Shown here piece by piece: positions 1,005 to 47,354 of a stretch of DNA of 64,000 nt. The DNA lies in contig CAUWBF010000003.1 in NCBI GenBank assembly GCA_963557785.1, positions 101,830 to 165,829 of the forward strand. The letters run 5' to 3'. A program made the translations under genes and the position numbers. Every line of letters begins with the position of its first letter. Position 1 is the first letter of the stretch. Below the pieces are notes generated by a model. The model saw nothing but the letters and a program-made list of their open reading frames with translations. It had not been told where the DNA came from and did not search any database. This DNA is from an uncultured Clostridia bacterium (GTDB lineage: Bacteria; Bacillota; Clostridia; TANB77; CAG-508).

Positions 1005-1440
1005 TTAGAATTTTATATAAAGTGTTGGGTCTACATCGTTACCATATCCGCTAGATGTTCTTACTTCAAAGTGTAAGTGATGTCCTGTAGAATTTCCTGG
1101 ATTTGAGTCTGAAGCATCTCCACCTTCTAATCCTATTGTTTGTCCTTTTGTTACTTTATCGCCTACGGCTACATCTATTCTAGATAAGTGGGCATAGAAT
1201 GTATATATTTCTACTCCGTTTACTATGTGTTTAATTTCTACACTGTTACCAAATGCTCCGTTGTTTCCTGCAAACACTACTTCACCGTCTGCTACTGCTA
1301 ATATATCTGTATGCCAACTTGCTCTAATATCTATACCTGTATGCTTACTTTCTACTCCTGTTGTAGGATGTATTCTCATTCCATATTTTGATGTTATTGT
1401 ATAGCTTTCATCTTGAGATAATGCTAATGGTAATGCAAAT
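1005..1440 (-). other. M23 family zinc metallo-endopeptidase domain (C-terminus of giant protein)
   Basis: ITSKYGMRIHP...KHTGIDI (HxxxD, ~1326-1343), YAHLSRIDVAVGDKVTKGQTIG, NSTGHHLHFEV (HxH, ~1063-1079), VDP: complete canonical catalytic motif set. Confidence 0.93.
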
Positions 1441-4400
1441 ACATTATTTTGTCTAATATATAATGATGTTTCATCTCCTACTCCTTCACTGCCTTCTTCA
1501 GTGTCTTCTTCTTTTCTTCTCATTCTTCTTCTTGATACTTCTTCTGGAATAGTCCATATTTGTTCTTCTATATATTTATTATAGTTTCCTCTTAATAATG
1601 TTCTATCAAGTTTATCTACTTTACCGTCTTCGTTTAAGTCATATACTTTTAGTCCATTATTATCTGTTACTTCTCCATAATTATATGTTAGAGCTGTCAA
1701 GTCACTTAATTCTATTTGTCCATCACTATTTACATCACCTGCGTAAATTTGTATATCATCCATTGGAACTTCTTCGTTGGTGTAAACAGTTATGTTTGTT
1801 AATCTATACTCTAAGTAAGATTGTTTTGTTACAACAAAGTCATATTCACCTTCTATTAATTGTAATTCATATGTTCCTTCTCCAGAAGTAGTAACTTGCG
1901 CTACAACTTCTCTTGGATCTATTTCATCATTTTCTGTTCTTTGGTCTGATGTTTTATATACTGTAATTGTTGAAATATGCTCGTTTCCACTAGCTGTTTG
2001 AGTAATAACTTTTCCTGTTACTTTTGCACGTTTTATAACATTTACTGTATATTCTTTAACATCATTATTTAATGCTGTAACTTTAACTTTGATAACTTTT
2101 GTATCTACATCAGCTAAATCTATAGTTTCTGTATTTGTTGCTCTAGTTTCTGCATTTTCATTTATAGAAATCTTAGCTAATTCCATATTAGACGTAGCTT
2201 GTAATTCTACACTACTACTATTTTGATCAACATATACTGTATATGTTCCATCTTCATTTGCTTCTATTACTTCGCTATTTGCTTTTATTTCTTTTAAACT
2301 GTTATCATCAGAAGTTTTTGTAATATTTAAAGTAACTATTCTTCTTGTTCCATCTGCACTTTCAAGTGTAATTGGAACTTGTGTATTTAATTCTTCTAAT
2401 GTAACCTCTTTAGAAGTTTTTCTTAAAGTAAAGTCTCCATCTATTATTTGAATTTTTGTTGTTTTAGATGTTGCTATTACTTCTACATTTGCTGTAGTTA
2501 CTGAGTTATCAACTTCTACTACATAGTTTCCTGTGCTATCTTGTATGATTTCATTTCCATCTACTGTAATAGTTAATCCTAAATCGCTTAGTTCATCTAC
2601 TGAACTTACTCTATTTATAATTAAACTATATTCTTTTGAAGCTAATTTATCATCTGCAAGTACTGTTACTGGAATTATTGTTTCGTCTTCATCTAATGTA
2701 TAATTTTTAAATGTAGCATCTGCTAAACTTGCTTCCATATCTGAAATTTGTACATATTCATCTTCGGCTACTGATGTTGCATTAATATTTATACTTTCTT
2801 TGTCTTGTAGAACATCAATTTTATATGTTGTATCATCTACTTTATTTACAAGTCTTCCATCTACATAAATTGAATTTAATCTCAAGTCATCTTGTTTTCT
2901 GTTTATAATTAACTTATATTCTTTTAATGTTCCATCTTCAGCAACTACTTGTATTGTTTTTCTAACATCTTTTGAACCTTCTGTATTAAGTTCTTCAGTA
3001 TATTCTGATTGTGTATACTCTGCATTTTCGTCAATTCTTACGTATGCATTACTATCAGCTAATTTAATTGCAAGATTTGTAGTATCAATACCAACTTTTA
3101 TAATTGTTTCATATACATCATTAGAACTTAAAATTATTTCTTCATCATTTAATGTTAGTTTTTCTATTGTTGTATTATTAGATAATCTTGTTAGGATGAT
3201 ATTATATGTTTTTACAACTATTCCATCTTGAGCTGTTATAACTACTGGTATCGTAATTACTTCTTCATCTGTACTTATTGGTAACATTATTTCTGTTGTA
3301 CCTATTTTTGCTGTTTCATCACCAATTTTGATAGATGCCTTTTCATTCTCAGGAATTATTTTAATTCTTACTGCATCTTGTAATGCTGTAATATTTTTTC
3401 TATAGATTAATCCTGTATCATCTGGTTCTGTTAATTCTCCTCCGATGTCTATTTCTTTAACATTTGCATTATCAGATTTCTTTAATATTCTTAAAGTATA
3501 TGTTGTTAATAATCCTGTTTCAGAAGTTACATCAATTTGAATTTCCTTATCTTCTCCAGCTGTACCTATTTCTCTAGTTATATTTCCTAAGTTTGATACA
3601 TCTCCAGAAGTAACTACTGCGTAATCATTTTTAGCTTTAATAGTAAATGTTTCAGATTCCTTAGTTCTTAATACATAAGCTGTATATGTTTTTGTTCTAG
3701 CATCATACTCAGTTACTAATTCATCTCCACTTAATATATATTCTATTTGATTATCATTAGAAACTCTATTTATTTCTAATTGTTTTGTTGTTACATTTTC
3801 TCCATCTTGTGCTGTTACTACAATGTTTAATGTTACTATCTTCTTATCGTTAAATACTATTTCTTCTGTAGATACATTTTCACAAATTGCACCACTCTCA
3901 ATTTGAACTGTTGCAAATTTGTTATTAGATGTAACTTCTACTGTTGCAGAATCGTTTGTATCTAATACATTGATATAATATTTACCATCTTGTTCAGTTA
4001 TTGTTCTTCCATTTACTTTTACAGATTTAATACTTGAATCCTCAGAAATTCTTAGTAAACGTACATTATATTCTTTTTCTGTTCCATCTTCTGCTGTTAT
4101 TGTTACTGGTACAATAGTTTCATTACTATTTACTATAGTAGCAAATGTTAATTCTTTTATACCTGTATTTTCACCAGAAGTAATTGTTGCGTATTCGTTT
4201 TCGCTTGTTACTTTAATTGTTGCTACTGATGCATCTTTTGCTATAAATTTAGTATAACTATCTGTTTCAGCATCGTAGAAGTCTATTGCATTTTCATCTA
4301 CTAATATATTTTCTAAGTTTGCATTTACTGAAATTCTTGTAATGTATAATGTATGAACTCCAACTGTACCATCTGTTGCTACAACTTTAATTGGCACTTC

Positions 4401-7400
4401 AACTGTTCTACCACTTAAGTTTGTTATTTGAATTTGTTTTTCTACTGTTTCTAATTCTCCTGAATTATTTATATCTATTTGTGCATATTCTTTAGCAGTT
4501 TTTGCATAAATAGTTGTTTTATCTAGTGTTTCTCTAATACTTGCGTAGTAGTTTCCATCTTCGCCTAATGTAGCTTCAACATTGTCTACAGTTACTTTTT
4601 CTAGATCTGTAACACTTGTTTCTTTTACTACATATAATGTTCTTGTTTCTTGTTCTCCACTTTCAGCTGTTGCTTTTATAGAAATTTCTGTAACTTCATT
4701 TGGTAAATATGCATCTCCTGATGCGCTACCAATTCCTATTACTTCATTATTTGCATTTATAGATGTATATTCATCCTCAGCAACAATTTCTAAGTTTTCA
4801 GTATCTAGTGGGTTTGTAACAATTGTCATATATGATTTTTGTGTTGCATTATAGCTTAATAATTTTCCACCTAATTTTAAGCTTGTAATATTTGTATTTG
4901 TAGATATTTTTGTAATTACTAATGTATGTATTTGCTCGTTTCCAGCTTGTGCTGTAACTTTTATTTTTATTTCTGTTGTTCTTGTTGTTAATTCTTTTTC
5001 ATGTGTTGCTTCAGCTGTTTCGTATGCTATGTCTTCTATAGTTAATTTTGCATATTCGCTTGAAGCTTTAACAACTATTGAACTTAATTCTTCTTTTGTT
5101 TTTACAATATAGTTGTCGTCCATTACTTTAGCTAATGTTCCATCAACTTTAATTGTTTCTAAGCTTGTATCTGTTGATTTCTTTAATACATTTACTGTAT
5201 ATGTTTTTGTATCTCCATTTTCAGCTGTAACTAATAATTCTGTGCTAGACATTCCGCTTTCTAGATTTAAAGTTATAGATGTGCTATGTAATTGTTCATC
5301 TGTACTATCGGCTTTAATCTTAGCATTTTCATCTTTAGTTACTGCTTCAATAGTTACTGAATCAACTGTAGTATCAACAAACATTGTGTAGTCATCTTTT
5401 CCATCAGCTTTAGTTTCTATACCATTTACTGTTATATAATCTAATTCTGTGTTATTAGAAACTTTTTTAATTGTTAATGTATAATTTTCTATATTTCCAC
5501 TTTCTGATCTAACTTTTACTGTTATATCTTTTGTTTTTACTCCTGTTAAATCAATTGTGTAAGAATTTTCTTTAAGTTTAAATTCAGAATCTTCTATTTG
5601 TACCCAAGCATTATTACTGTTGCTTCTTGCAACTATTGTATAGCTTTCATCCTTAATTAGAACTTCTGCCATATATCCATTTTCTTGTAATATTGCATCA
5701 TTATTATCTACTCTTAATGATTCTAATGTTGTATCTGAATCTAACTTAGTTATTACTACCACATATTCTTTATAACGTTCTGATTTTTCTGGATCTCTTA
5801 CTGTTACAATCACTTCAACTTCAGATTCATCCATTGGAATTTCGAAAGATGAAGATCCTGATTGCTCTCCAATTCCATCTACAGAAACAATCGCATCATT
5901 ATTTTTAGCATCTACTGCTAATATAGCTTTTGTAAGTTCATTATTTACTCCTACATGGTATTTTCCGTCTTCTTCAAGAACAGCTTCTTTTTCTTCTACA
6001 ATTATTGAGTTTAATCTAATATCGTTTTCAAGTTTTATAATAACTGTATATGCTTGTTCTAATCCGTTTTCAGCTTTAATTGTAAATGGTACTTCAGTCT
6101 CTTTCTCAGTTATAGTTATATTCTTTGTAGCTTTTACATCTGTGTAATCTGAGTTTTGTATTTTAACTTTAGCAAATTCATTATTTGCTGTAACTGTTAA
6201 GTTTACATCTGTCATAGTATTTGGTACTTCTATTGTATAAACAAGGTCTGATGTTCTTTCAACAAATTCATCTTCTATTCCTTCTGCTTCCACACTTAGT
6301 ACTGTGTTATCTGATGAGAATTGTTTTAATACAACTTCATGTTCTTCAGATGAACCATCTTCTGCTACTACTTTAACTTTAACAATTTTTTCTTCTTCAG
6401 CTATTTCTACTAAAGATGTTGTAGTTTGTACCGCTTCTTCTAATCCATCTATAGTTACTAATGTATTTTCATTTTCTGCTACAGCTTTTATAGTAACTTG
6501 TTCTTTATTTCCTATTTTTACAACATATTTTCCATCACTATCTTTTTCGATTAATTCATCATCTACATATAATTCTGAAAGGTTAGTATTATTAGACATT
6601 TTTCTAATTGTTAATTCATATTCATCTAATGTTCCATCTTCGGCCATAACTGTTATTTTTACTGGTGTTTCTGTTACTCTAGTTGGAACTGTAACAGTAT
6701 TTCCTTTAAGAACATATTCTGAACCATTTATAGAAACTTTCGCGTTTTCATCTGCAGCTTCTGCATAAACATCTATACTTTGTGTATTATATCCTATTGT
6801 TGCTATATATGTTCCTTTATTATCTTTAACAACATTATTTCCATCTACTTGAACACTATTTAAGTTTGTATTTGATGATTTATTCTTGATGATTAACTTA
6901 TATGTATTTATTGTCATTTGATCTTGAGCTGTTACTGTAAGATTTACTATCATTTCTTCTTCAGATTTAATAACTGATTTTGTTAATGTTCCTGTTACTG
7001 CATCTTCATTTTCGTATGCTACTTTAGCTTTTAAATCTTCAGGTACTATGCTCATATTAATGTCTGTTATAGATTTATTTACTTTAGCTACAAATGTATT
7101 TGTTTCTTCGTTGAAACTTGCTTCCTCTCCATTAACTACTATTTGTTTAATATCTGCAACATCTGGTATTCCATGAACATATACTTTGTATTGTTCTTCT
7201 GTAACACCATCTTGAGCTTTAACAGTAATTAATACAGTCATTTCACTTCTTGTAACATTTATATTTTGTGTACTTACACTTTCTTCGAATATGAAGTCAT
7301 TTATTTTTACTTCTGCAAATTCATCTTCTGATATAGCTATAACTTCAATTCCTTTAGTAATGTAATCTAACTTAATATCATATGCATTATCTTCTGTAGT

Positions 7401-10400
7401 ACTTGCAATTGGTTTTACACCATCTATTGTTACAGATTTTAATCCTACATTACTATTTAATTTTTCAACTGTTAATGTATATTCTTCTGTTGTAATTCCA
7501 TCTTGTGCTTTTATAATGATTGGAACTATTGTTGGGTCTTTGCTCATATCTACTGTTGCTGTATTTGTTTGAACCTCATATGTTCCGCCATTTATACTTA
7601 CTTTTGCTAATTTAAATCCTGATATTGCACTTACATCTAATTCTTCAAATATTCTTCCTACCTTAGCAATAAAGTTATTTGTTCCTTCTTCACGTTCTGC
7701 TGTAACTGTAAACTTATCGTTTCCAATTGTAATAGAATCGATACTTGTATCTTTAGATGGTTGATAAATTATAAGTGTATAATTAGCACGTTTTGTACTA
7801 TCTTCTGGATCTGTTACTGTAACTATATGTGTGTTTGCTTCTTCTTTAGTTGATACTTTTCTTGTTGAAGTTCCTTCTTGAGCTCCCATATCATTTATAT
7901 TTACATACTCAGATAAAATGCTTGCCATTGCTGTTACATTTGCTGTTGTTTGTTTTTTACTTAAGTATACTTCATATATATCTCCGTTTTTTTCTGCCTT
8001 TTGTCCTTCAACTGTAATATATGCTAATCCTAAGCTTTCTTTTTCTTTTTCTATTGTTAATGTGTATGTTTTGCTCATTTCCATAGCTGTTACAGTTATT
8101 TGAACAGTTGCAGTTTCTTTATCTTTGATATCTACTTTTTTACTTGAAACATTTATTTTAGCTTCACTATTATCTATTTTTACATTTGCTAATTTGTAAA
8201 CTGATGTTGCTGTAATATTTGCTATATCAGTATCTGTTGGAACAACTATTGCATATTCTGTGTCGCTTACTCTTAGTGCTTCTTCATTATTTATACTTAA
8301 ATCTTCTAAGTCTAGTACCTTATCTGCTTTATAAATTGTTAATGTATAAACTTTTGAATCTTCACTTTCTGATGTTACAACTATTTCTACTTCTTTAGAA
8401 TCTATATCTTTAGTTTCAACATTTCTTGTTGAAGTTGCAGTTTCTGGTTCTTGTCCATCTATAGCAACCTTAGATTTTTTATCTTTTGCTGTAGCTACTA
8501 CTTCAGCTAAATCTATCTCTTCAGAAACTACCATTGCATATTCTGTATCACTTACTTTTACAGCTTTCTCTTCATTTACTACTATATCCTCTAAATCTGT
8601 ATTATTTGAAAGTTTATTTACTATTAAATTGTATCTATAAACAACACCATCTATAGCTTTTACTAAAAATTCTATTGTTTGTGTATCATCATTTATGTTT
8701 ATTTCTTTTTCTATACTTCCATATTCCCAACTTGTTCCACCATCGATGCTAATTCTATCTGTATCGTATATAGATTTAATAAATAATTTTGCTGTATTTT
8801 CAGTTGTTGCTATTGTTGCTGTGTATTCAGATACATTTGTTATTACCGCTTCTTCTGAATTTACTGTTATATTTTCAATTCTTTGTTTTTCTGAAGGCAT
8901 TACTACTCTTATAGCTTCAGATTGTGCTTTTGTTGCCTTGTCTGTAGCTGTAATTGTTGTCATACCATAACCTTTAGTTGAAACTATTCCATCTTCTACA
9001 GTTGCTACACTTTCATCGCTAGATGTATATGTAAAGTCTGTAAGCTCTCTTGTATTATTATTTAATACATTGAATACATCATAATTTAATTTTAATGTTT
9101 CTTCTGCATTTATATCTAATACATAATTGTTTGGAGTAATTGATAATGTCTTCTTTCCAACATATGTAAATTCTTTTGAATCTTCATATGTTTCGTTTCC
9201 TAATTGTCCGTATGTATTATTTCCAGTTGCATAAGCAAATCCATCTTTTGTAATTAAGTAATTTGTATTATATCCGTTTCCTAATGTAAATACATTATTT
9301 ATGCTTTCAAGTTTTGTTGGAATTTCTACGTTTTCTGTAGTTCCTAATCCTAATTCACCGTTTGCATTTTCTCCCCAAGCGTATACATTTCCATCTTTAT
9401 CTAATGCTAATGCATTATTTCCTTTTGCTGATATATCTACTATATCTCCATTTGTATATAAATCTGTTGCTTCCCCATTTGTAACTTTTACAATATTACC
9501 ATCAGCTTTTAGTATGATAATACTTTCGTTCATACCTTGTGCTTTTACAGCTGTTGCTATTTCTGGCATTGCTATATCACCAAATGTATATACTTTACCA
9601 GTACTATCAATAGCTATTGTATATTTTGGTCCTGCTGCAATACTTACAATATGTTCTGCAATTTGATTTAATTTTGTAGGTCTTAATGAATTTTCTTTGC
9701 CTTCTGTTCCTAATTGTCCATTTTCATTTAATCCCCATGTATATACATTTCCATATGAATCTAATGCTACTACGTGATTGTCTCCTGTAGCTATTTGGAT
9801 AATGTTTTCTAATCCTTCAATTTGAGAAGGTTTCTTAACATTAAGTTTGTTTCCTTGTCCAAGTTGTCCATATGTGTTATCTCCCCAAGACCAAACTGTT
9901 CCATCATTTCTTAATGCCATTGCAAATTTGTTTCCAACAGAAATATCTTTGTATGTTGAAAGTATATTGATATTGTTTGGTATATTACTTGATTTAGCTA
10001 ATTCATTTCCTAATTGTCCTTCAGAGTTATTTCCGAATGTCCAAATACTTCCGTCAGCTTTTAATGCTACTGTAAATTCTTTTCCACCTTGAACTTTTGG
10101 AACATTATTATTATCGGCTTTAATAACTTTTACTATGACAACTAATTCTTTATTAGTTCCTTTTTCTGTTACTTTAACCCATGTTGTACCAACTTTATGT
10201 CCTGTTATATTTCCATTTTTATCAACTGTTGCAATTTCTGGATTTAATGTTTCATATGTAAATTCTGATTCTGACTTATTTTCACTATATAATATGTTAA
10301 ATTCAAAGCTTGCTATTACACCAGCATTTACAGTTTCATTAATTCCAACATTAATTTCTGATTCTTTTACATAAGATTCATCATTTCCTATTTTTACAGG

Positions 10401-13400
10401 AATTCTACTATTTGTTCTTGTAGCTACCTTAGATGTTCCATGATAGTAGTCTCCATAAGCCCAAACTGTTCCATCATATTTAGAAATCACACTATATGTA
10501 TTTCCTGCTGATATATTCATTACATCATCTAATGATTCTAGTTTGCTTACTGTTGTAGAATCTATTGTTGTTCCATTTCCTAATTGTCCAAAGTTATTTG
10601 ATCCTACATTTAATATTTCTCTATTATTATTTAGAAGCATTGTATATCCGTATCCAGCAGATACTTTCATTATATTATTCATTCCATTTACTTTAGTTGG
10701 TTCTTTTACTGTTTCTGTTGTTCCATTAGCTAACTGTCCATTGTTGTTGTAACCAAATGTATAAATTTCTCCATATGCTGTAAGTGCAATACTATGATTG
10801 TCTCCAGCTGAAATATATCCTACTGGTTCGTTTATATCTAATTCTGCAAATGAATCTGTTTTAAATTCTTTACTTCCTGTTTGTCCAAATACATTCAATC
10901 CTGAAGATAATACTTTACCATATTTATTTAATAATAATGTATGATTTTTTCCGATTGAAGCATCTATTATATCTGTTACATTATTTACTCTTGTTGGATA
11001 TTCTACATTGTTGTATGTTCCAGTTCCTAATTCACCATTAGAATTTTGACCCCATACATATACATATCCATCAGTTGTAATTGCTATACTTTGATAATTT
11101 CCTGCTGCAATTTTATCAATATTCTTTAATCCTAATTTTGTTGGTGTATTTGTACTTGTTCCTATTCCTAATGCATAATTATAGTTTCTTCCAAATACAT
11201 ATACTTCGCCACTAGTTGATAGAACTAAAGTATGTTCTTCTCCAACTGCTACTTGTTTTGCTTTAATTCCTGATGGTAAGTTAACTTGTACAGGTTCATC
11301 TTTGTCTGTATTTGTTCCATCTCCTAATTGTCCATATGTATTTTTTCCATATGCCCAAACTGTTCCATCAGCTTTTAGAATTACAGTATGAGATCCACTT
11401 GATACTACTGCTGGTACTTGTTTTGATAAGCTGCTTACTGTAACACAACCATCTCCACCTTTTCCTCCAGCAACACCTACAGTTGATTCTCCACCTTTTG
11501 CTTCAATTGTTCCATAGTTTACTGTATTGTTTGTGTAAATATTTACACTTCCTCCACCTGATGCTCCACCTGAACAAATTATTGAATATGAATAATCTGT
11601 ACTTATACTTGGTGAGTTAACACCATTAGCACTAATTGTATTGTTATTATCTAATGCATTAGCATAAATATTTAAAAGTCCACCTGTTCCGTTTTCTGAA
11701 ATATAGTTCTTTGGTGTTGCTCTATAGTAGCTATAAGAACCTGTTCCATTTCCTGCACCACCAAGAGATATTTGACCATATCCAGAACCATTGCTTGAGC
11801 ATACAACACCGTTACTTCCTGCTCCACCAACTGAAGATCCGTTAGCTGATACAGCATACCAGCCTCCACCACCATCAGAGTTGGCAGCTCCTGAACCTGC
11901 ACCTCCAGAGTAACTTGTACCTGTACCACCTGCTCCTATTTGTATAGCAGCAGTATAGTTTCTTCCAGAACCAGTTCCTCCACCACCTGTTCTTCTGTCG
12001 CTTCCGTTATATCCGGCATTACCGTAAAGTACTGTACCTGTTCCTGATGTATATTTAGAGTTTCCACCTTTTGCACCTACTGCTGGAACATAATCATATT
12101 TTCCATATGCGTCTTTCCATAAGTAAACATTTTCTCCCTCTGCTTTTGCTCCTCTTGCTGTCATTGAAATTGTTCCGTTATTTTCTAGTGTTCCAGTTAC
12201 ACATAAAGTAAATCCTTTTGGTCCACCATAAGTGTTACCATATGTAGTTACTTTAACACCATTTTCAACTGTTAAGTTACCATTTACTTTTACAACTACC
12301 ATTCTTTGAGCATATGAGTTTTCTGTTGCAACATCTGTTGCATCTCCGAAGATTTTATCTTCAGCCCATACTTGATCTTCTTGGAAGTTATAGAAGTGTA
12401 TTTTATAATCTACAGTTTCATCTATTCCGTTTACTCTTAAAGTATATTTTCCATCTGGTAAATCTAAACTTTTAACTCCTTGAATTATACTATCGCAGTT
12501 TATGTATCCTTCTCCATCTGCTAAATATCCACTTACTTTGCTTATGCTTTCGTTAGACTCTAATATCTCATCTTCTTTTGGTAAAATTGTAACTTGTACA
12601 ACATTTATATAATTTGTATTGTCCTTTTTAACTACAATAGTTGTATTTCCTTCTTTAGCACCTGTAACTGTTCCGTCTTCAGCAACTTTTGCAATAGTTG
12701 TGTCTCCAGATTCGTATGTTACATCTGCTATAGCTTTTACATTTTCAAACACATTAAATGTTTTATTATATGCTTCAATTTTGTATGTTTGATCTTTTTG
12801 TATAGTAACATTATTTACATTTAATCCTAATTCTTCTAATCCTACAATATTTAGGTTATAGCTATTTTCATATAGTTTATTTCCTAAGTTACCATATTTT
12901 CCAGATCCCCAAGAATATACATATCCTTCGTTATTTATAATTGCACCATTGTTATATCCTACTGATAAGTATAATACATTTTCGAATTTATCATTTTTAG
13001 CAGGTAAAACTTGAACTACTGATTGATCTGTTGCTAATTTGTATGAATTGTTTGATCCCCAAACATATACATCTCCGTTTTCTAAAACTGCCATACTAAA
13101 TCCGTTTCCGGCTTTTAGTTGTTTAATTCCTGATAATACTTGTCTTCCTGTAGAATCTTTAACTATTACTGGTACTGTTGCATTTGTTTTGTTTCCATTT
13201 CCAAGTTGTCCATATGTATTATTTCCAATACCAAATCCTAAACCATCTTGTGTACGTATTAATGTATGATCTGATCCAGTAGATACTTCTATTGCATTTG
13301 TTACATTTTGTAACTCTTGTCCATTTGATATTTTTGCTACTTTTCCATTAGCTTTTACTGCATATTCTGCAGATATATCTACGGCATTCTTAATGTTTGC

Positions 13401-34400: not shown

Positions 34401-37400
34401 TTTATTTGCTGTACTGTTTGTTCCTAATTGTCCATTTCCATTGTATCCCCATGAATATACATATCCATCTTTAGATAATGCATACATAGAGTTTCCTGCT
34501 ACTGTAACTTTTACTATATCTGTTAATTCTAAACCATCATCTTTTATAACTTGTACAAATTCATTTCTGTGGCTTACTGTTGTTCCATCTCCTAGTTGTC
34601 CGTATGTATTGTCACCAATTGTCCAAACTGTTCCATCTTCTTTTAATATTACTGTGTTATTTGTACTTTGTTCTGTTTCTCCTAAGCTTACTGCATTTTC
34701 ATTATTACGTAAAACATTTACTGTTGTTGCTGCCATTAATCCAGTTGTAGCTTCTTCTGCATAGATTATAGCTGTTCCATATCCTATTGCTGTAACTTCA
34801 CCATTTTCAGATACTGTTGCAACTGTTTCATCGCTTGAATGCCATGTTAATTCTATTGTATCTAAAGTTCTTCTTATTACATTTGCATTTGGATTATATG
34901 AAACTGTTAATGTTTCTTTTGAACCTTCTTTTAAGTATATAGATTTTTTATTTGTTTCTATATAACTTGGTCTTATTTCCATTGCGTTTGCTATATTAGC
35001 TGTTACACCTTGTAGTCTATATTGTGCATTAGATTTATTTAATCCAGAACCTACTAATTCCCCATTTTCTTTTATAGCTACAAATGTTGATACAAATGTT
35101 GAGTCTGCAAATTTCTTAATATCTGTTAATTCGTTTCCATATTCATCATACATTAATGTTAATGTATATTGCGTTCCTATGTTACCATTAGATGCTTGAC
35201 CATATTGGTCATCTCCTGTTGAATAAATTTTTCCATCTCTTGTTTTTACATATGTTGTATTTATTGCAGTTCCAATATCTACAAATGTTTTACCCTCTAG
35301 ATATGAAATTAATACCGGTTCTGTATTAGCATTTAAACCTATTCCAGATTGACCATATCCACTATAACCCCATGTATATAATTTTTGTTCTGTTGTTAAT
35401 GCTACAACATAGCAATTTCCCACAGCTATTTTTTCTACATTAGTTATGGCTGCTTGTCTTGGAATAGTAGAATTTGCTGTTGTTTTATTACCAAATTGTC
35501 CATTTGAATTGTTTCCAACGCTATATACATTTCCATCTTTTGTAAGCATTGCAAAGAAGTTTCCATGTCCCCCTTCTATTTGAATGACATTATTTAATTC
35601 TGTACTATCAACTTTTCCTAATTTTGTTGCTGGTTCACTTGTTGTAGCTGTTCTTCCTAATTGTCCATAATTATTTTGTCCTGCTGTCCAAACTGTTCCA
35701 TCTGATTTTAATATCATTAATGCTGCATCTGTAAATGCAATGTCCACAACATCTGTTATTTCTTCATCATTAACATCTATTGCTCTTGTAAACTCTGTTA
35801 CATTTGTTGTTGTTCCTAACGCTAATTCTCCATTTGTATTTAGACCGCAAGTATATAAAGTACCGTCCTTTAAAAGAACTGCTACTGAATTATTATTTGC
35901 TTCTATATCTATTACGTTTGTTATAACCTCTCCATCTAAAGAGTATCTTAATTCTTTAATTTCTGTGTTAACTACTTTGCTACTATCTCCATTTTGTCCG
36001 TTAGCATTTGTTCCCCAATATCTTACTATTCCATCTTGAGATAGTGTATATGTATTAAGATCTGTAACTACTACTTTTTCTATTTCTGTTTCTGCTTGTG
36101 TTCCAACTACATTTACAAATATAGTTTTGGAAATTTCAGCTGTTTCATCCTCTATTACTAGTCGTGCATTTCCTTTCTTTATACCTGTAATTGTTCCGTC
36201 CTCTGTAACTGTTGCAATATCTGTATCTAGTGATGTATATGTAATAGTTCCATTGTTTTTAACATTGTGGAATACATTAACAGCATTTGTAACTTCTACG
36301 TCTAATTTCTTAGTTTGTCCTTCTACAACTTTTACTGTTGTATAGTCTATACTAAATGTTTCTCTAGAAGTTAATTCTAAATATTTTATATCATCTCCAA
36401 TTACATAATTACTATTTTTTATGTCAATTTTTGTTATAACAGCATAACCATTTCCTGTATTACCAACCATAGTTGATGCTCCATCATATGTCGGCATACT
36501 TTGATTTCCAGCTATTGTATATGCATTATCTAAATAATATTCTGATGATACTGCATATCCACTTGGTACTGCAGAATTTATAGTATATACGAAACCTGAT
36601 CCGCCACCGCCACCACGGTCGTCATCTGCTGATCCATCTGGATTAGATCCGCCACCGCCGTACCAGCCGCCACCGCCGGCACCTGCATGACCTCCTGAAC
36701 CACTAGCTCCAGATCCACCTTGACCAAATGTTCCTCTATAACTTCCTGCTGCTGTTGTTGTAGCTCCTGTTCCACCACTACCATAAGATTCTGTAGCAGT
36801 TCCTCCAGAAGTTCCTCCACCGTAATATCCTGGTCTATTGCTAGCTCCATCTGAACCACCACCACCAGCTACTATAACTCTATTATAAAGTGATGTTCCT
36901 CCAATTCTTATATCTGTGGCACCACCACCACCAGCGTGGTAAGCTCTTGAACCACCACCGTTAAATCCTCCAGAAGTTCCTCCTGTATTACCAGATCCTC
37001 CTACATATACATAAACTGTTTCTCCTTTTCTTAATTCAACAACACCTGTTGAATATCCTCCTTTTCCACCATAACCTGAATTTGAACGATATCCACCTTG
37101 TGCTCCCCAAACTTCTAATTTATACATTCCATTTTCTTGGGCAGTAAATGTTTGAACTCCAGCAGAGTAAGCATATGCATATCTGTCTCCAGTTAGGTAT
37201 GAACCTGCTTGATTAAATACAATTCCAAATTGGCCATATGTATTATTTCCTGTTGCATAAAGATTACCATCATCTTTAATAACAGTAGAGAAATTATTAT
37301 AATATTCGCCTATGGCAAATACACCATCAAAATCGCTATCATCAGCGTTTTTCATAGCTACTGCTTTTGTAAAGTTTTGTATTGCTCTTTGTGATAAATT

Positions 37401-40400
37401 GTAGTTTGTATTTCCTCCTACTACATAAACTTTTCCTTCATTATCTAGCATATATGTTGCTATTCCTGAAGCGCTTATTTGCTTAATATTTGTTAATTCT
37501 GTATCTTCATCTGAATCAATTAGTACTTTAACTGGTAAACTTGAATTTGTAGTTGTACCATTTCCTAATTGTCCATTTGTATTTAATCCTGTTGTATAAA
37601 TTGTTTTGTCTTTAGATAGAACTACTGTATGGCTTACTCCAGATGCTACTGCTGTTGCATTTTTTAACATACCTGTTCCATCTTCATTTCTCATTTGTAT
37701 AAAATATCCGTATTGTGTTGTATCTGATGAACCATATTGTCCATAATTATTTTGTCCTGCTGACCAAACTGTTCCATCAGCTTTTAATACTGTTGTTGTA
37801 TTTCCTTTGCTAGATACTTCTATTACATTATTTATATCTAATGCTTTTACTGGAAGTGAAGTATTTGTTGTATTCCAACGTGCAAATTGTCCATTTCCGT
37901 TATATCCAACACTGTATACTTCTCCATTTTCTTTTAATAATACTGTATGATTTGCACCTGCTGATATATCTACTATTCCTGTCATCATATCTGTACCGTT
38001 TTCAGCTAACATTTGTACTGCATAATATGACATTGTAGTATTATTTTGTCCTAGTTGACCATAAGTATTAATACCCCAAGACCAAACTGTTCCATCAGCT
38101 CTTAGTGCTACAAAATAGTTTTGTCCTGCAGCTATTTTTATAACATTATCTAATTCTGTAAATTCTGCTGTTTTAACTTGAACATAAGTTGCAGATTTAT
38201 CTCTTTTTCCTCTACCTAGTTCTCCATTTGTATTATCTCCTGCTGTCCAAACTGTTCCGTCTTCTTTTAATACTGCTGTTGTATTTAGGCTTTCTGCAAC
38301 TGCAGCATAAGCTACAGCGTTTTCATCATTTAATAATACTGTTACTTTAACTTGTGCTTCATTTTGTGTATTGTTATCTATTATTCTAATTATTGTTTGT
38401 CCAAATGCTACTGCTGTAATATTTCCTTCTTGGTCTACTGTTGCAATACCTTCATCATCAGATTCCCAAGTAATATTATCTAGGTTATATGTAACATCTC
38501 CTAAATTTAAATTTTGTTTATATTCGGCATTTACTTTTATTTCGTTTCCAACTTTTAATGTTAATTGTTTCTTGTCTAATTCTATATATTCTTTATTTAT
38601 TATTGTTGATCTTAATAAATTTCCACCTGGTATGTTTGTTAATCCATTTCCACTATTTAAGTATCCACTTACTGCTATATGACCATCTTCTGTTCTTACA
38701 TATAGTAAAGGATTTGCATTTAATGTATCATTTGTATATATTTCAACTATTTTAGATTCTAAGTCTGAATTTAATTTTACTGGATATGCATTTATATTTG
38801 CTGTTGCTCCATTTCCGAATTGTCCATAACCATTATATCCAACACTATATACATCCCCATTATTATCTAATAATACTGTGTTGTTATAGGCATTTTTAAT
38901 ATCAATAATATTATTTATATATCCTGTATTATTAGCGTTCTTCATTTGAGTAAATGTTGATGTACCATAATTCTCGCCAGTATTTCCTCCAGAAGTTCCA
39001 TTTCCTAATGCTCCATAATATATTCTACCACAAGACCAAACTGTTCCATCTTCTTTTAAGATTACTAAATTATCATGCCCTGCTGATACTTTTATAATAT
39101 TATTTACATTATTATATACTCTTGTTGGAATTGTAACACTTGAATTATATGAACTGTGTCCTAAACGGTAGTAGGCACCATATCCCCAAGTCCAAAGTTC
39201 TCCGTCTTTTCCTAAAGCTGTTGCATAATCATCTCCTGCTGATATTTGTATAATATCATGTACTTCTAATGTTTGAGTTGCATACTTAATCGGTGTTGTT
39301 GTATTTCCAATTCCACATTCACCATTATTGTTGTATCCCCATGCATATATATATCCATCATTTGTTATGGCATATGCTGTACTATCGTCTGTCATTTGTT
39401 CTATTGCTTTTATATTAGTTAATGGTGTTTCGCTATCAACCATTACTTGTACTGGAACTAGACTGTCTGTAGTAGTACCATTGCCTAATTGTGCATAATT
39501 ATTTCTTCCATATGTCCAAACTGTTCCATCAGTTTTTAATACTGCTGTATTCCATGACCCTACAGCAATATCTATAATTCCTGTTAAAGGTGTTCCATCT
39601 ACGTCCAATGCTTGAACTGGTTCTGAGCTACTTATTTTTGTATTATTTCCTAATTGTCCATATGCATTATTTCCCCAGCTCCAAACTGTTCCATCTTCTT
39701 TTAATAATACTGTAAAATTATCTCCTACTGCTATTTTTTCTATTAAAGATTTTTTAACATTTACTAAAACTTGTTTTGTAAATCCATTTGTTTCATCTGT
39801 AATTGTTACTCTTGCTGATCCACATACTAAACCTGTTACTTTTCCATTTTCATCTACAGATATAACTCCATTATCTTCTGCTACAAATGTTAAATTTCCT
39901 AAAGTTATCTCATCATTGTATATATTTATACCTTCATCAATATATGAATCAAGAGTTAATTCTTCTCCAATTTTTATGTCATATATATTTTTATCTGTCC
40001 TTAATTTTGTTGGATCACATAATGTTAATGTTGTGTGATTAGCAGTATCTTGGTTTGCAAATGTACCATAAGGTTGGTAACCTGCCATATTTATTGTTCC
40101 ATCACGTTTTACATATGCTATTTGGCTTCCTCTTGTTTTTCCTACGAATAAGATATCTGATAAGTTAGTTGTTCCATCTGTATCTTTTATTGCTACAAAT
40201 GATGTAACTTGTGTTGCATTTCCTTGTGCTAAATCTCCATATTGATTGTATCCTAATCCGTATACATTATTGTTTGCATCTACTATTATTGATTCCCATA
40301 CAGATGCCATAATAGATTTTACTTGAATATCTCCTGTATTTAATTTTACTGGTAATGTTTTATTTCCTGTTGCTCCTTGTCCTAATTGATAATGTTCATT

Positions 40401-43400
40401 GTTGCCTACACCATATACTTCTTTATCTTTATTTAAGAATAAAGCAAATGTATTTGTTGCACTTATATCAATTATATTTTCTAAGCTTCCTGTTCCTTCT
40501 TTATTAAATACATATTCAAATCTAGTATCTTTTTCTGCAGTTGTTCCAACTCCTACTTGTCCTGCTGTGCTCCATCCTGCTGAATAAACTTTTTGTTCAC
40601 TTGTTAGAATATATGCATTTACATATGATGCTTGTACTTTTATAGCATTTTGTACATCACCAATTTTTATTGGTAATTTTTTATTTGCATTTCTTTCTAA
40701 TAGATAATCTGTATATCCCCATGTATATACATCACCTTTATTATCTAATGCTAAAACTATATATTGATTTGATGATGCACTTCCTACTGATGCATCTATA
40801 TCGATAATATTTTCTAAATATCCTGTACCTGCTGTATTCTTTACTTTTACTGCTACATTTCTATTTGTAGTATCGTTTTGTCCTAATTGTCCAATGTTAT
40901 TTAATCCCCAAGCATATACATATCCATCTTGAGTTAAAGCATATGCTGTATACCAGCTTTGTGCTATTTTAACAACATTTTCAAGATATCCACCTTCATC
41001 TTTTTTAACTCTTGTGTATTCTGCTTTATTTATGTTAGTTCCGTCTCCTAATTCACCATGTCCATTGTATCCAATAGTCCAAACTGTTCCATCTTCTTTT
41101 AATAAAACATTAAAGTTATCATTTGTTTTTATATCTCCTAAGGTTACAGCTTCTTCGTTATTTCTTATAACTGTAACTATTGAACTTGCCTTTAAACCTG
41201 TATTTTTATCTTCTACCCAAATAGTTGCTGTTCCTATTCCATTTGCTGTAATTTTTCCATCACTAATAGAAGCAACACTTTCGTCACTTGTGTGCCATTC
41301 TAAGTCTAAGTTATTTAATTCTCTATTAATTAAATTTAAGTTGCAATTGTATGTTACACTTAAATCTTTTTCTTGTGTTTCTTTTAATATTACTTGTCTA
41401 TCGCTTATTTCTAAGTAATCTTCAAATACTGCTGTAAAATTATTAACTGTGCTATTGGCACTTAATTGTTGATAGGCTTCATTATCACCTGTCATCATTA
41501 CTGTACCATCATTTAATATGATAGACATTGTTTGACCATAGTTTCCATCTTGCATATATTTTACATCAGTTATTGCGTTTCTATGTACATCTAAACATTT
41601 TGTAAGAGTAGTATGTTTTGATGTATCTGTTGTTCCAATTGATAGACTTCCTTGTCCGTTATATCCTGCTGCATATAGTCCATCTTCTTTTAAAACATAT
41701 AGTGTTGAAGATGTTGTTCCAAAGTTTAATACACCATCTACATTTATTGGTTTTATTTTTATATTATTTGTAGTTGTACCAGTTGCAAGTTGTCCATAAT
41801 CATTATATCCAACTGAATATAAACTTCCATCATTCTTTTGGAATATTGTAGAAGCCCATAAAGTTGCTATTTTTGTAACGTCTTCTATATTCGCTTTTGT
41901 TGGTACCCCATATTGTGTTGTGTTTTCTGTTCCTAATTGTCCATATGTGTTTAATCCTACTCCATATACTGTACCATCAGCTTTTAACATAACTAAATAG
42001 CTGTCTCCTACTGATATTTGAATTACATCTGTTATTCCTTCAACTTGTCCAAATTTTGTTGCAGGAGAATCATCTGTAACTGTTCTTCCTAATCTTCCAT
42101 TTGCTGTATTTCCTGCTGTCCAAACTGTTCCATCTTCTTTTAGTACTGCTATAAAGTCTGCTCCTGTTTGAACTTCTTTTACATCTGTTAAAGGTTCATC
42201 ATTTACTGTTATTGCTTGTGTGAATTGTGTTTTATTTTCTGTGTCTCCAACTCCTAATTGTCCATTTGTATTTAGTCCTGCTGTTTCTAATGTTCCATTT
42301 TGTAATACTATTGCACTAAAGTTATATCCACCACTTATATTAATTATGTCTTTTCTTACTTCTCCGTCTTCGTTTGTTAAAACATATCTATCTGTTGTAC
42401 TTGCTGTAGTTACTCCATTTCCAAATTGTCCATATGCATTTGTTCCCATAAATGTAACTGTTCCATCTTCTGCTAAAGCCATTGTATGAGTATCTTTTGA
42501 TATAACTTTATTTATATCTTGGAAACTTCCATTTTCTGTAACTCTTACTATTACATATGTTCTAATTCCTTGCTCTGCGTTTTCTATTGTGATTTTTGCA
42601 GTACCTTTAGATTTACCTGTAAGTAATCCTGTTTCTGATACTGTAACAATTTCTTCATTATCTGATGAGTATGTTAAAGTTCCTGCTGTATTTATTGTAT
42701 TAAATACGTTTAAGCTATTTTTATATTGTATCTCTAATTGTTTTGTTCCATTTACTTCTACTGTTTTTGTTAATTCATCTACTACTAATTTTTCATATGA
42801 AACTTTAGTTAAATATGTAGCATTTGAATTTATTTGTGTATCATCACCTAATTGTCCAAATTCATTATTTCCTGCTGACCATATGCTTCCATCTTGACGT
42901 ATTATTCCTAAGTTTCTTGCTGGCGCTGTTGTATTTGTTATATCAGAATATAGTCTTATACTTCCAGTTGCTAATAAAATAGCATCTTCTACATCTGTTC
43001 CATCGCTATTTTTTAGAGTAGTATATGTTGTTACATTTGTAGTGTTTCCTTGTGATAATTGTCCATATGCATTTCCTCCTGTAACATATACTTTTCCATC
43101 ATCTGCAAGTATCATACTGTGTGATATTCCTGTAGATAGTTGTTTTACTTTTATAGAAACTTCTTGAGTTTCTTCTTCTCCATCTGCATTTGCTACAGTA
43201 ACACTCTTAGTTGGTAATGTTACTTTTGTCCAAGATGTTCTATTTGTAGTATTTCCTAGTCCTAATTGAGCATAGTTATTTAATCCTGCTGTATATAGTT
43301 CTCCATCAGAAGTTAGTATATTTGCATGATATGTGTTATTTGATGCCATTATTACATCTTTGTTTATTATATTAAATAATGATTGATTTGTTGTACTTCC

Positions 43401-46400
43401 TAATCCTAGTTGTCCATATGCGTTTCCACCTACATTGTATGCTACACCATTTGAATGAATTAATATTGGTGAATAGCTTTGTCCATTTGCTATGTACGCT
43501 ATACCTTCCATATTTACTTTAACTGGTATATGTACTTCTGTAGTATTTCCTGTTCCTAATCTATAATCTGTTGCAGATCCCCAAGCATATACATCTCCAT
43601 ATTCTGTTAATGCCATGCTGGTACCATATCCTGCTCCAATATCTACTATATTTCTTAAACTTTCTGCTCCTGTTGCATCTAATACTTTTGTAGCATACAT
43701 TAAGTTAGTTATATTGTTTTGTCCTAATTGTCCATTGCTATTATATCCCCATGCATATATTTCTCCAGCTGTTGTTAGTGCTAAAACGTGTTCATATCCT
43801 ACAGATATTTTTCTTATACCTGTTAAATATGTATTTTCATCTATTTTTACTTGAGTAGGTCTTGATTGTGTTAGGTTGTTTCCTATACCTAGTTGTCCAT
43901 ATTGGTTTACACCCATAGACCATACAGTTCCATCTTCTTTTAAGATTACAGAGAATCCGTCACCTTGTTCGAATTGTGGAACTGTTATTGCTCCTTCATG
44001 ATTTGAATAAACATTTATGAATGCTTTTACTTGTAAGTTTAGTCTTTCGTTTGTTCCTATAATTGTTGTTTGTCCAATTCCTGTTGCTGTTATAACACCT
44101 GTGTTTGAGTCTACTGTTGCTACATCTTCGTTCCAAGATGTAAATGTCCAGTCTTCTGCTTTTTGAGCATCTTTAATAAACACATTAAATGTGCTTGCTT
44201 GTAAAACATCTAAATCAAATGTTTCTCCTATTTTTAAATATTTTGTTCTTTCATTTAATACTGTTTCTTTGTCATTATATTGATATAAATATTTGTAATT
44301 AGCTACATTAGCTGATACATCAGTTCCTAATTGATTGTAGCTACTGCTTCCACTTACTAATAGTCTACCATCTGTTGTTATTACACCATAGTTTGTTGTT
44401 GAGTCTGCTTGTACTAAATATCTTGCATTCGTAATTTCATTTCCTTGTGAGTCTTTCATTGTTGTAAAAGTAGATAAATTACTTGTATTTCCTTGTGCTA
44501 GTATGCCTGTTGAATTATTTCCTATTGTATAAACTGTATTATTTCCATTAATAAATGTTATATTATCATTATTAGCTGATATTTCATATATATCATTATA
44601 AATCATTGAATTATATATACTTGTATATGAATCATTAATATCATTAATAATTGTTCCTTTTTCATCTAAAAATATATATTTATTCTCACTTGCAGATATT
44701 TTTGATATTCCACATGTTATTGCCTGATTTACATTACTTAAATTATATACATATCCTTGTTTTGTTAATATAATATTTCCTTTAACACTTATTACATCTA
44801 ATTCTCCTATATCTACTGTCTCTGGTTTAGATGTGTAGCCTTTACCAAATTTATATACTTTTCCATCTGCAGTAAGTACTGTTGATGTTGCTCCTGTTGC
44901 ATCTATTTCTTTTATACTTTCTAGTAGTTCCATTTCAATTTCTTTAAATTCAGTTTCAGGTTCTGTTGTTTCTTCTGTTGTAGTATTATTTTCCACTGGT
45001 TCTTCTACTGTAACTTTAATAGTTGTTTTTATTTGTAATTCTGTTGGAGTATTAATATTTTCTGTATTTTCTGTTCCTAATTGTCCATTACTATTATATC
45101 CCCAAACATATATAGTTCCATTTTGAGATAATGCCATTGCATAATTTGTTCCAACTGAAATATCTTTTATATTTTCTAATATTTTTGTTGGTTCTGCTCT
45201 GTTTTCGTTATCTCCTGTTCCTAATTGTCCATAATTATTTTTACCCCAAGTCCATACTGTTCCATCAGATTTTAAAGAAACTGTAAAATTTTCTCCCATT
45301 TCTACTTGTGGTTTAATTCCATTTAAAACATCAACATAAATATATGTATCTGCATCATTTGTTGAATCATGAATTTTTATTTTTGTTCTACCTTCTGCTA
45401 TACCTTTTATAACTCCTTCAGATGTTACTGTAGCTATGTCAGTATTTAATGATTCAAAACTTAAATTTCCTATATCTTTATTTTCTCTATTATTTAATTT
45501 ATTAGTATCAATTGTATAATTCTCATCTACTTGTAATTCAATAGTTTTATCTTCATAATTTAGTGAGCATATATTAGTCTTAGTTATTCTTACATATCCA
45601 TTACCAGTGTGTCCTGTCTCATATCCTCCTGTTGGAGAAGGCATACTTTGCCATCCCCCTAAAGTTGTTCCTAAACTTGTATAATATGATCCTCCACCAG
45701 CTCCAGTATGATAAGAACTATTATGTCCAGTTCCAGCAGATCCTCCTGTGTATCCGCCGCCTCCGCCGCCGACATAATTTGTACCTCCGCCGCCTCCAAA
45801 GCCGCCGTGTACTCCTGAAGTATAACCTAAACCTGTACCTCCGCCGTTTACAAATGAATATCCTGCAGAACCTCCACCAGAATAACTATTATACATTCCA
45901 TTTCCATAGAATCCTCCACCGGCTCCTGCAGTTGATGGGTAACTCCAACCACTATATCCAGCAAATCCTCCTTGTCCTTCTGTTAATTGTCCAACAAAAC
46001 TTGTATTATATCTTGATGACATTCTTGATGCTTGTCCATGATAATATGTTCCACTATAATTATTACCATATGCACCACCGCCACCACCAGCAACTGCTAT
46101 AGGTGTATTATCTTCTGTTGCAATAAAAGTTCCTCCACCACCAGAGCCTGTTGATGCATTTAAACTTTTTCCTTTTTCTCCTACTAATATCTTATAAGTT
46201 GTTTGCTCTGTTATTGTTATTGTACTTCTTGCATATGCACCTTTACCTGATGTATATCCGCTTGTTCCTTGTCCTCCTTGTGCACCCCAAGCTTCAAATG
46301 TATAAGTTCCTGGTTGTAATGTAACTGTTTCAATTTTACCAGAATATTCATAATTATTAACCTCATAATTATTTTCTGTATAAATTAAACTTATTTTTAC

Positions 46401-47354: not shown

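Follow-up and report, generated by a model that had tools for sequence, protein, structure and literature searches.

What does a gut bacterium with a genome of 1.72 Mb need a single gene of 46 kb for? The question is raised by a window of 64,000 nucleotides (the whole stretch of DNA analysed here) from an uncultured Clostridia bacterium (GenBank assembly GCA_963557785.1, contig CAUWBF010000003.1, positions 101,830 to 165,829, or C3:101830-165829 in our numbering of the contigs), in which one open reading frame (ORF) of 15,449 codons, hereafter the giant gene, takes up positions 1005..47354 on the reverse strand. An initial annotation, made from the sequence alone, described this ORF as a string of about 25 RCC1 propellers on immunoglobulin-like (Ig) spacers and suggested an array of binding surfaces, either a multi-target adhesin or an array of inhibitors. 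Here we report that the giant protein carries, besides the propellers, an N-terminal hydrophobic helix, glycine-rich domains, a long row of cadherin-like domains and, at its C-terminus, a dockerin followed by a peptidase of family M23, and that the adjoining convergent gene encodes a cohesin protein with a wall-sorting signal. On the whole we lean, with modest confidence, towards a surface fibre that is exported by the Sec pathway, docked on a cohesin and used for multivalent adhesion, with the M23 enzyme remodelling the wall near the anchor.

Domain organization of the giant protein

The order of the domains along the giant protein is clear (Table 1). Searched with Pfam in four overlapping pieces, the protein gives matches far above the cut-offs to WD40_RLD, RCC1, RCC1_2, Big_2, ALK_LTK_GRD, Cadherin-like, Dockerin_1 and Peptidase_M23. 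Hidden Markov models (HMMs) built from the giant protein itself find 26 Big_2 domains with a period of about 470 aa between aa 605 and 12808, and RCC1-like segments occupy each interval between them. The RCC1-like Pfam families used are PF25390, PF00415 and PF13540, the first of which (WD40_RLD) reaches 519-2176 bits in the individual 4,000-aa pieces, where the cut-off is 150. An HMM for single blades detects 166 blades, compared with the 175 expected for 25 seven-bladed propellers, with seven blades in 17 units, six in 7 units and five in one. Together with the model of unit 17 (U17) described below, these numbers bear out the earlier count of about 25 propellers on Ig spacers. The strict alternation of Big_2 and propeller that was also claimed holds throughout the array, except that two glycine-rich inserts interrupt it, at aa 3407-3642 (GRD3) and at about aa 11600-11965. 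The latter insert, about 370 aa between Big_2 number 24 and the propeller of that unit, has no Pfam match and no relation to GRD3 by BLASTP, and in Atlas it shows borderline matches only, to phage 'hypothetical' protein clusters (score 0.90). ALK_LTK_GRD (PF12810) matches three stretches of the protein with a sum of 285 bits; the literature on ALK-type glycine-rich domains in bacteria yielded nothing useful. As for the architecture as a whole, the propeller array of the initial annotation stands, while the N-terminal helix (a hydrophobic segment of 18 residues at aa 18-35), the two N-terminal glycine-rich domains, the 24 cadherin-like domains, the dockerin and the M23 domain had gone unmentioned. 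The composition is dominated by Thr (10.9%), Gly (10.8%) and Asn (9.0%), with just 0.2% Cys.

The 25 units are strongly diverged, with an average amino-acid identity from unit to unit of 31% (minimum 18%, maximum 55%). An AlphaFold2 (AF2) model of U17, the one unit modelled, was built on an alignment of 23 rows taken from the gene's own units and reaches a pLDDT of 89.8 and a pTM of 0.83. In this model, a seven-bladed propeller that is fully closed lies between a Big_2 sandwich and the Big_2 that follows; the propeller consists of 28 strands in 7 four-strand groups plus a closing strand. Compared by Foldseek with the Protein Data Bank (PDB), the model matches UVR8 best (E 1.5e-35, TM-score 0.87-0.90), followed by the RLDs of HERC1/2, RPGR and RCC1, with TM-scores of 0.76-0.79 for HERC2, RPGR and RCC1. 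This comparison bears on the reading of the gene as an array of BLIP-II-like enzyme inhibitors, each propeller acting on a different hydrolase. The fold is indeed common to BLIP-II (3qhy, 1jtd; TM-score 0.76), but BLIP-II ranks 46th or lower, below many RLDs, and UVR8, HERC1/2, RPGR and RCC1 are closer (0.77-0.90). The genomic context contains no hint of inhibition, and the enzyme attached to the array is itself a hydrolase. The inhibitor reading thus finds no specific support, the RLDs of UVR8 and HERC2 being closer than BLIP-II, and we consider it very improbable.

Reality of the giant gene

The genome is a draft of 25 contigs, in which contig ends divide a paralogue of the giant gene into three pieces, and both facts would fit an assembly chimera or a decaying pseudogene. 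Against this, the 46 kb at 30% GC are free of internal stops: the ORF listing and our own translation agree on a terminal stop only, just as the initial annotation had stated. The longest exact DNA repeat measures 36 nt within the gene and 35 nt between the gene and the rest of the genome, and its DNA repeat families are only 60-80% alike; with unit identities of 18-55%, the earlier view that the units are diverged and not an assembly repeat artefact is upheld. Twenty sequencing runs from 17 studies, labelled mostly as pig gut, contain 65% or more of the words sampled from window positions 20001-30000. Contigs from four runs of four studies, aligned to window positions 14001-34000, cover all 30 bins, are colinear with the window and keep the frame. 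The aligned pieces are 0.5-4.9 kb long with 99%+ identity and mostly few differences, and being short they do not by themselves prove the order of the full 46 kb. Some contig joints seen in the alignment were considered as rearrangements and rejected; their sides cover only 20-57 letters and fit repeats or other organisms.

The differences among samples point in the same direction. The six indels listed preserve the frame when taken in three groups (+1, -1 and +3; -3; -1 and +1). Among the 40 listed single-nucleotide polymorphisms (SNPs), to which the tally is confined with 273 further SNPs outside it, 25 are synonymous and 15 nonsynonymous, whereas random mutation would give 22% synonymous. 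Selection on the giant gene at the amino-acid level is purifying, and the gene is real and under selection. Both the search for a chimera or internal stops and the search for purifying selection, which had been proposed along with the initial annotation, therefore come out in favour of the gene, and a chimera or pseudogene is extremely improbable. The notion of a costly array of many different propellers is likewise sustained, as the part of the ORF examined is intact in four other samples and most of the listed SNPs are synonymous.

The dockerin and the M23 peptidase

The C-terminal module, residues 15107-15449, begins with a CarboxypepD_reg-like Ig domain and a dockerin that has two Ca loops; a charged linker, whose length varies, leads from there to the M23 domain. 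The dockerin is matched by Dockerin_1 (PF00404) with 37.9 bits, and in a PDB search the Ig and dockerin stretch matches the X-dockerin pair (XDoc) of a scaffoldin from Acetivibrio (4u3s_B, E 1e-5). Across 38 aligned C-terminal modules, the residues D101, D133, N135, D137 and D144 of the dockerin Ca loops are invariant or nearly so. The M23 domain scores about 90 bits in Pfam and matches known enzymes in the PDB (3slu, 9e-18; also ShyA, LytM, lysostaphin and zoocin A). The motifs HTGID and HHLH are present, corresponding to the HxxxD and HxH zinc-binding and catalytic motifs of M23 peptidases, and H232, D236, H283, H320 and H322 are invariant in 38 of the 38 modules. The catalytic motifs are intact, and judged by these residues the domain looks like an active peptidoglycan peptidase.

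The adjoining cohesin gene

The 288-aa gene that converges on the giant gene ends 62 nt from its stop and sits between two giant dockerin genes, of 15,449 aa and 5,328 aa. In a scan of the genome with PF00963 this ORF obtains 28 bits against a cut-off of 24.1. A profile of 43 sequences of its family matches PDB cohesins (1g1k, E 1.7e-8), its AF2 model has a pLDDT >90 over residues 30-160, and 39 of the 39 top-ranked PDB matches listed by Foldseek for this model are cohesins, with TM-scores up to 0.81. Most of its 88 database relatives are unannotated, and 10 of them carry a precomputed Cohesin match. The cohesin is followed by an N/T-rich linker with 'NNTV' repeats and then by IPYTG, a transmembrane helix and a basic tail (KYK), all three conserved in the 43-sequence alignment. 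The cohesin and its sorting signal are thus both at hand beside the giant gene. The initial annotation had noted that the window holds no dedicated secretion genes; this is true, but it overlooked the protein's own signal or anchor, the dockerin, and the adjoining cohesin with its wall-sorting signal.

In the whole genome we count two cohesin ORFs, both with sorting signals (the second ends in LPATG and a transmembrane helix), five sortase genes, and five proteins with a dockerin. Three of the latter are giants, of 15,449 aa, at least 7,834 aa and 5,328 aa; the remaining two are the 485-aa neighbour described below and a 518-aa SH3_3 protein. A prediction of the complex between cohesin aa 25-165 and the Ig and dockerin part (170 aa), made from the window's own sequences only, gives a score of 0.02 against a mark of 0.34, which speaks neither for nor against their pairing. 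Among the 61 genomes compared (60 of relatives and the window's own), Cohesin is found in 26, and all 6 of the family-level genomes with an RLD also had a cohesin.

Two relative genomes, here called G008 and G027, contain ScaE-like single-cohesin proteins with sorting-type ends, near RCC1 genes and not adjacent to them. G008 further possesses a cluster of cohesin proteins (G008:C9:15960-22746). Two of these, of 328 and 1,583 aa, have dockerin-like EF-hand sequences at their ends and are possible adaptor scaffoldins, and a third, of 252 aa, has LPKAG and a transmembrane helix. The cluster is suggestive of a non-cellulolytic cohesin-dockerin system with more than one level in this bacterial family.

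The protein family and the growth of the giant gene

The giant protein belongs to a widespread family. With its C-terminal module as query, 41 relatives are found at 40-57% identity and 99-100% coverage, 613-1,834 aa in length and many of them contig fragments. The same module matches 246 genomic stretches, in records titled uncultured Clostridia or Clostridium from the guts of human, goat, rabbit, deer and mouse, and some of the genomes contain several copies. A phmmer search against 1.84 billion representatives (50%) returns 82 sequences at E<=1e-30, the longest of 7,235 aa. Limited to proteins of 5,500-17,500 aa, a search gives 304 matches, of which the best 120 have 5,695-7,942 aa; 113 of these 120, spanning 5,924-7,942 aa, combine 8-13 Big_2 domains and 16-32 cadherin-like domains with an M23 domain, as compared with 26, 24 and one in the giant protein. 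A form of 7,235 aa recurs about 90 times among the matches listed. The databases label members of the family as 'M23 family metallopeptidase' or 'cadherin-like beta sandwich domain-containing protein' [Clostridia bacterium]. The order common to the family is a signal anchor, 8-14 repeats of RCC1 propeller plus Big_2, 16-32 cadherin-like domains, the Ig-dockerin pair and M23. In view of at least 113 proteins with 8-13 units, and of the RCC1 giant genes in a 2023 preprint (West-Roberts et al., bioRxiv 10.1101/2023.11.21.568195), the earlier view that one or a few copies of such propellers are the usual case is outdated.

Since the other members found have at most 7,942 aa, the giant protein is about twice as long as any relative found, larger relatives being possibly fragmented; a homologue in G027, which belongs to another genus, is truncated by a contig end at a length of at least 8,096 aa. 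By length and domain content, the giant protein is the largest and most elaborated member found of a common, unstudied family. The papers found describe neither the dockerin-M23 family nor its link to a cohesin anchor, and we did not find an experimental study of the family among them.

The comparison of single units gives a view of how the gene may have grown. The best matches of U17-U25 are proteins of other species, with 43-51% identity and an order that is partly kept: U18-19 are colinear with units 9-10 of one relative (P0082) and U20-21 with units 3-4 of another (P0190). Most of U1-U16, on the other hand, are closest to one another, with up to 55% identity, as in the internal pairs U3-5 with U7-9 (36-43%), U13 with U15 (55%) and U14 with U16 (47%). 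That U17-U25 match outside and most of U1-U16 inside points to a standard core of about nine units with its stalk, to which an N-terminal extension has been added. The extension, about 16 extra units, looks like the product of old block duplications together with the acquisition of glycine-rich domains. The head also varies among homologues, being glycine-rich here, beta-helix-like in the paralogue and absent in others; glycine-rich domains occur in 0 of the 199 relatives compared.

The distribution of the family also bears on a different explanation, namely that the giant fibres form a structural coat or matrix, a mesh or brush for spacing, for protection from phages or host factors, or for aggregation, in which the propellers self-associate or act as decoys. 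PF25390 is found in 14 of the 61 genomes and in 4 of 25 within the same genus, a patchy spread that fits an accessory surface trait. The giant dockerin genes and the 2,597-aa Big_3 gene upstream together make up about 5% of the genome, and the three giant dockerin proteins share just two cohesins with wall-sorting signals, both of which would suit a coat. However, the 25 propellers have been kept different (18-55% identity) and U17-U25 are conserved by position across species, which suggests distinct, specific functions, and selection at the amino-acid level is purifying. A coat is therefore, in our view, quite unlikely.

Export, anchoring and orientation

In the reading we favour, the general Sec pathway, with one SecA copy in the genome, would export the giant protein by means of its N-terminal signal or anchor helix. 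The C-terminal end would be the base close to the cell, formed by the cadherin-like stalk, the Ig-like X module, the dockerin and M23. The dockerin would plug into the single-cohesin protein from the adjoining gene, which sortase would fix to the peptidoglycan. The M23 domain on its flexible linker may then cut peptidoglycan cross-links near the anchor, and so open or remodel the wall around so bulky a protein. With Big_2 domains as spacers, the 25 diverged propellers would project outward together with the glycine-rich heads and form a multivalent adhesin. From typical domain sizes, the extended length is estimated at roughly 0.3 micrometres. It is the outward end, the pairing of this dockerin with this cohesin, the action of M23 on the producer's own wall and the targets of the propellers that are inferred here, and each is put forward as probable at best.

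Several observations weigh against this reading. Default hmmscan of the 288-aa ORF does not list Cohesin even at E up to 10, and phmmer with the single sequence finds no match in the PDB, so that the case for a cohesin is made by its score in the genome scan, by the profile and by the fold. No cohesin of the 288-aa family is seen within the 3-kb flanks of 80 related loci, and in G027 the nearest cohesin lies 17 kb from the homologue of the giant gene. No RNA run is present among the sequencing runs listed as containing this DNA. Finally, the N-terminal hydrophobic stretch is 18-21 residues long, has charged residues directly after it and shows no clear AxA site; it resembles an uncleaved membrane anchor more than a signal peptide that is cleaved off, in which case the N-terminus would be tethered and M23 could be distal.

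This last point leads to the opposite polarity, in which the N-terminal helix is a type II membrane anchor and M23 stands at the free tip, up to about 0.3 micrometres out, so that the protein would be a lytic 'fishing line'. Neighbouring bacteria would be gripped by its propellers and its cadherin-like domains, and M23 would cut their wall (in competition, predation or the scavenging of nutrients), and the contact of dockerin and cohesin would park the tip on the producer or bridge sister cells. The hydrophobic segment without a clear cleavage motif, which is shared by the giant protein and 10 family members, where it follows a K/R-rich N-terminal segment, agrees with such an arrangement, as do the position of M23 at the extreme C-terminus behind a long variable linker and the invariance of all its catalytic residues. 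The solved relatives of the M23 domain include the bacteriolytic lysostaphin, LytM and zoocin A, the genome of 1.72 Mb is small, and the giant-gene preprint ties giant proteins to attachment and cell-wall degradation (bioRxiv 10.1101/2023.11.21.568195). What speaks for the docked fibre instead is that the C-terminal end is conserved while the N-terminal end is variable and lineage-specific, and in fibrous adhesins these are usually the anchor and the tip, respectively. In addition, a dockerin beside the enzyme and cohesins of the wall-anchor type in the genome argue for attachment on the producer, and an immunity gene was not identified, though none was specifically sought. We regard the reversed polarity as rather unlikely, yet as the foremost competitor of the docked fibre.

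There is also a bolder picture, unlikely but worth stating: genome-reduced gut Clostridia would use a non-cellulolytic cohesin-dockerin 'adhesome' with giant fibres as its main cargo, in which a tentacle of about 0.3 micrometres captures other microbes or host structures by its 25 distinct propellers and glycine-rich heads, and the tethered M23 breaches the wall of the partner. If true, such a tentacle would be an organ of contact-dependent feeding or predation in a Gram-positive gut bacterium.

Comparison with known systems

Giant fibrous adhesins of Gram-positive and Gram-negative bacteria, such as Ebh, SiiE and the RTX adhesins of the LapA/MpIBP type, use megadalton, repeat-built, Ca-dependent stalks to hold binding domains off the cell. 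Their repeats are of the Ig, FIVAR or BIg kind, and a transmembrane segment, a type I secretion system or LPXTG serves as the anchor. To our knowledge, neither a string of 25 propellers nor an anchor by dockerin is present in any of them. With the targeted peptidoglycan endopeptidases lysostaphin, LytM, zoocin A and ShyA the giant protein shares the M23 fold, the same Zn-binding and catalytic motifs, and the fusion of the catalytic domain to a targeting or binding part; unlike in these enzymes, the 'targeting part' here has about 15,300 residues and lies N-terminal to the enzyme.

The closest parallel for the anchor is the ScaE system of Ruminococcus flavefaciens, where ScaE is attached by sortase. 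It shares with the present locus a large secreted protein that ends in an Ig-like module and a dockerin, a small protein with signal peptide, one cohesin and sorting signal, and the clustering of the genes. There ScaE holds ScaB and CttA (PMC5429695). The present locus differs in that no cellulases or carbohydrate-active modules are seen, the cargo is a giant adhesin-like protein, M23 follows the dockerin, and the sorting motif is IPYTG and not LPXTG; the pairing of dockerin and cohesin here would be by analogy.

Within its own family, the giant protein keeps the domain order, a C-terminal module 40-57% identical over the full length and the partial colinearity of U17-U25, and differs by its 15,449 aa, its 25 propellers, the roughly 16 extra N-terminal units and the four glycine-rich domains. 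RCC1-type giant genes in gut Clostridia (Oscillospiraceae) have been briefly reported by West-Roberts et al. 2023 (bioRxiv 10.1101/2023.11.21.568195), and the preprint describes them as built of a single repeating domain and without a membrane anchor. Very long ORFs, an origin from mammalian gut Clostridia, diverged RCC1 propellers and a predicted extracellular role in adhesion or at the cell surface are common to those giants and ours. The giant protein differs from that description by the alternation with Big_2, the glycine-rich domains, the 24 cadherin-like domains, the dockerin, M23 and the N-terminal hydrophobic helix; it is thus neither a single-domain protein nor one without a possible transmembrane anchor. 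In the main text of the preprint, M23 and cadherin have 0 occurrences each. RCC1-type giants of gut Clostridia are already reported, and what appears to be new is the dockerin-M23 architecture, the link to a cohesin and the size.

Locus and genome context

The genome of 1,721,246 bp has about 27% GC, and the giant gene accounts for 2.7% of it. Four contigs (C9, C18, C19 and C20) have 36-41% GC compared with about 27% elsewhere and may be mobile elements or binning contamination. Upstream of the giant gene, on the same strand, are found the genes of ScpB, ProRS and AspRS and those of the 485-aa and 2,597-aa proteins. The intergenic region upstream of the giant gene has 643 bp; by eye, GAGGGAG is seen 7 nt upstream of its ATG and a hairpin after the 2,597-aa Big_3 gene, and scans for promoters and terminators at both ends of the giant gene give counts not above those of shuffled sequence. 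The 2,597-aa protein is probably a further surface fibre, with its anchor at the opposite end; its N-terminal domain has no known family, and the tail after the transmembrane helix is acidic and about 60 aa long. The N-terminal domains of this protein and of the 485-aa protein were taken by eye for cohesins, which neither Pfam nor the cohesin-family profile supports. Small ORFs of 66-147 aa occur at window positions 59457-59900 and 62205-63998 on the reverse strand, between and beyond the tRNA-synthetase and ScpB genes.

Just outside the window, the gene of the 5,328-aa protein (C3:85520-101505, reverse strand) flanks the cohesin gene on the far side; the protein terminates in a dockerin and further contains a cadherin-like domain and SpaA (prealbumin-like) domains, of which there are at least 8. 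The pieces of the paralogue, of 1,341, 613 and 5,880 aa, lie at three contig ends (C4:118864-end, the whole of C25 and C2:1-17640) and add up to at least 7,834 aa. Its C-terminal end is the same dockerin-M23 module (E 3e-123), and its N-terminus has the signal anchor followed by a beta-helix-like start in place of the glycine-rich domains.

Table 1. Features of the giant gene and of neighbouring genes, in window coordinates
Feature	Position	Strand	Basis
Whole giant ORF, 15,449 codons plus stop	1005..47354	-	ORF listing, translation
N-terminus, aa 1-35: K-rich stretch, then 18-residue hydrophobic helix (Sec signal or uncleaved signal anchor)	47250..47354	-	Translation; layout common to 10 family members
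Glycine-rich domain 1, ALK_LTK_GRD, aa 77-322	46389..47126	-	Pfam and own HMMs
Glycine-rich domain 2, ALK_LTK_GRD, about aa 330-604	45543..46367	-	Pfam 54.8 bits, cut-off 24.5
Units U1-U6, each Big_2 plus seven-bladed RCC1-like propeller, aa 605-3406	37137..45542	-	Pfam, own HMMs, blade HMM
Glycine-rich domain 3 (GRD3), ALK_LTK_GRD, aa 3407-3642, inserted after U6	36429..37136	-	Pfam and own HMMs
Units U7-U23 and Big_2 number 24, aa 3674-11580 (U17 modelled)	12615..36335	-	Pfam, HMMs, AF2, Foldseek
Fourth glycine-rich insert, about aa 11600-11965	11460..12557	-	No Pfam match; no detectable relation to GRD3
U24 propeller, unit U25 and last Big_2 (number 26), aa 11968-12808	8931..11453	-	Own HMMs, blade HMM
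24 cadherin-like beta-sandwich domains, period about 95 aa, aa 12844-15106	2037..8825	-	Pfam and own HMMs
CarboxypepD_reg-like Ig domain, aa 15107-15198	1761..2036	-	With dockerin, matches scaffoldin X-dockerin (4u3s_B, E 1e-5)
Dockerin type I, two Ca-binding loops, aa 15199-15262	1569..1760	-	Pfam, alignment
Peptidase M23, aa 15337-15449, HxxxD and HxH motifs, after variable charged linker	1008..1346	-	Pfam, PDB matches, alignment
288-aa convergent gene: signal peptide, cohesin, N/T-rich linker, IPYTG, transmembrane helix, basic tail (sortase-type sorting signal)	76..942	+	PF00963, profile, AF2, Foldseek
2,597-aa protein: signal peptide, 17 Big_3, C-terminal transmembrane helix, tail	47998..55791	-	Pfam, sequence
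485-aa protein: signal peptide, unknown domain, cadherin-like domain, same Ig and dockerin module as giant protein, without M23	55812..57269	-	Pfam, sequence

Conclusions

The locus reveals a heavy genomic investment in the surface apparatus, 2.7% of the genome in one gene and about 5% with the other giants and the Big_3 gene. Members of the family, which bear generic labels only, are common in the gut metagenomes of humans, pigs, rabbits, ruminants and mice. Its conserved base, set against a duplicated head, shows how such giants grow, and the 25 diverged propellers are a natural library of binding scaffolds. By tying RCC1 giants to a cohesin-dockerin anchor and to an active-looking wall hydrolase, the analysis opens the way to concrete and cheap experiments, and it would extend the biology of cohesin and dockerin beyond the degradation of fibre.

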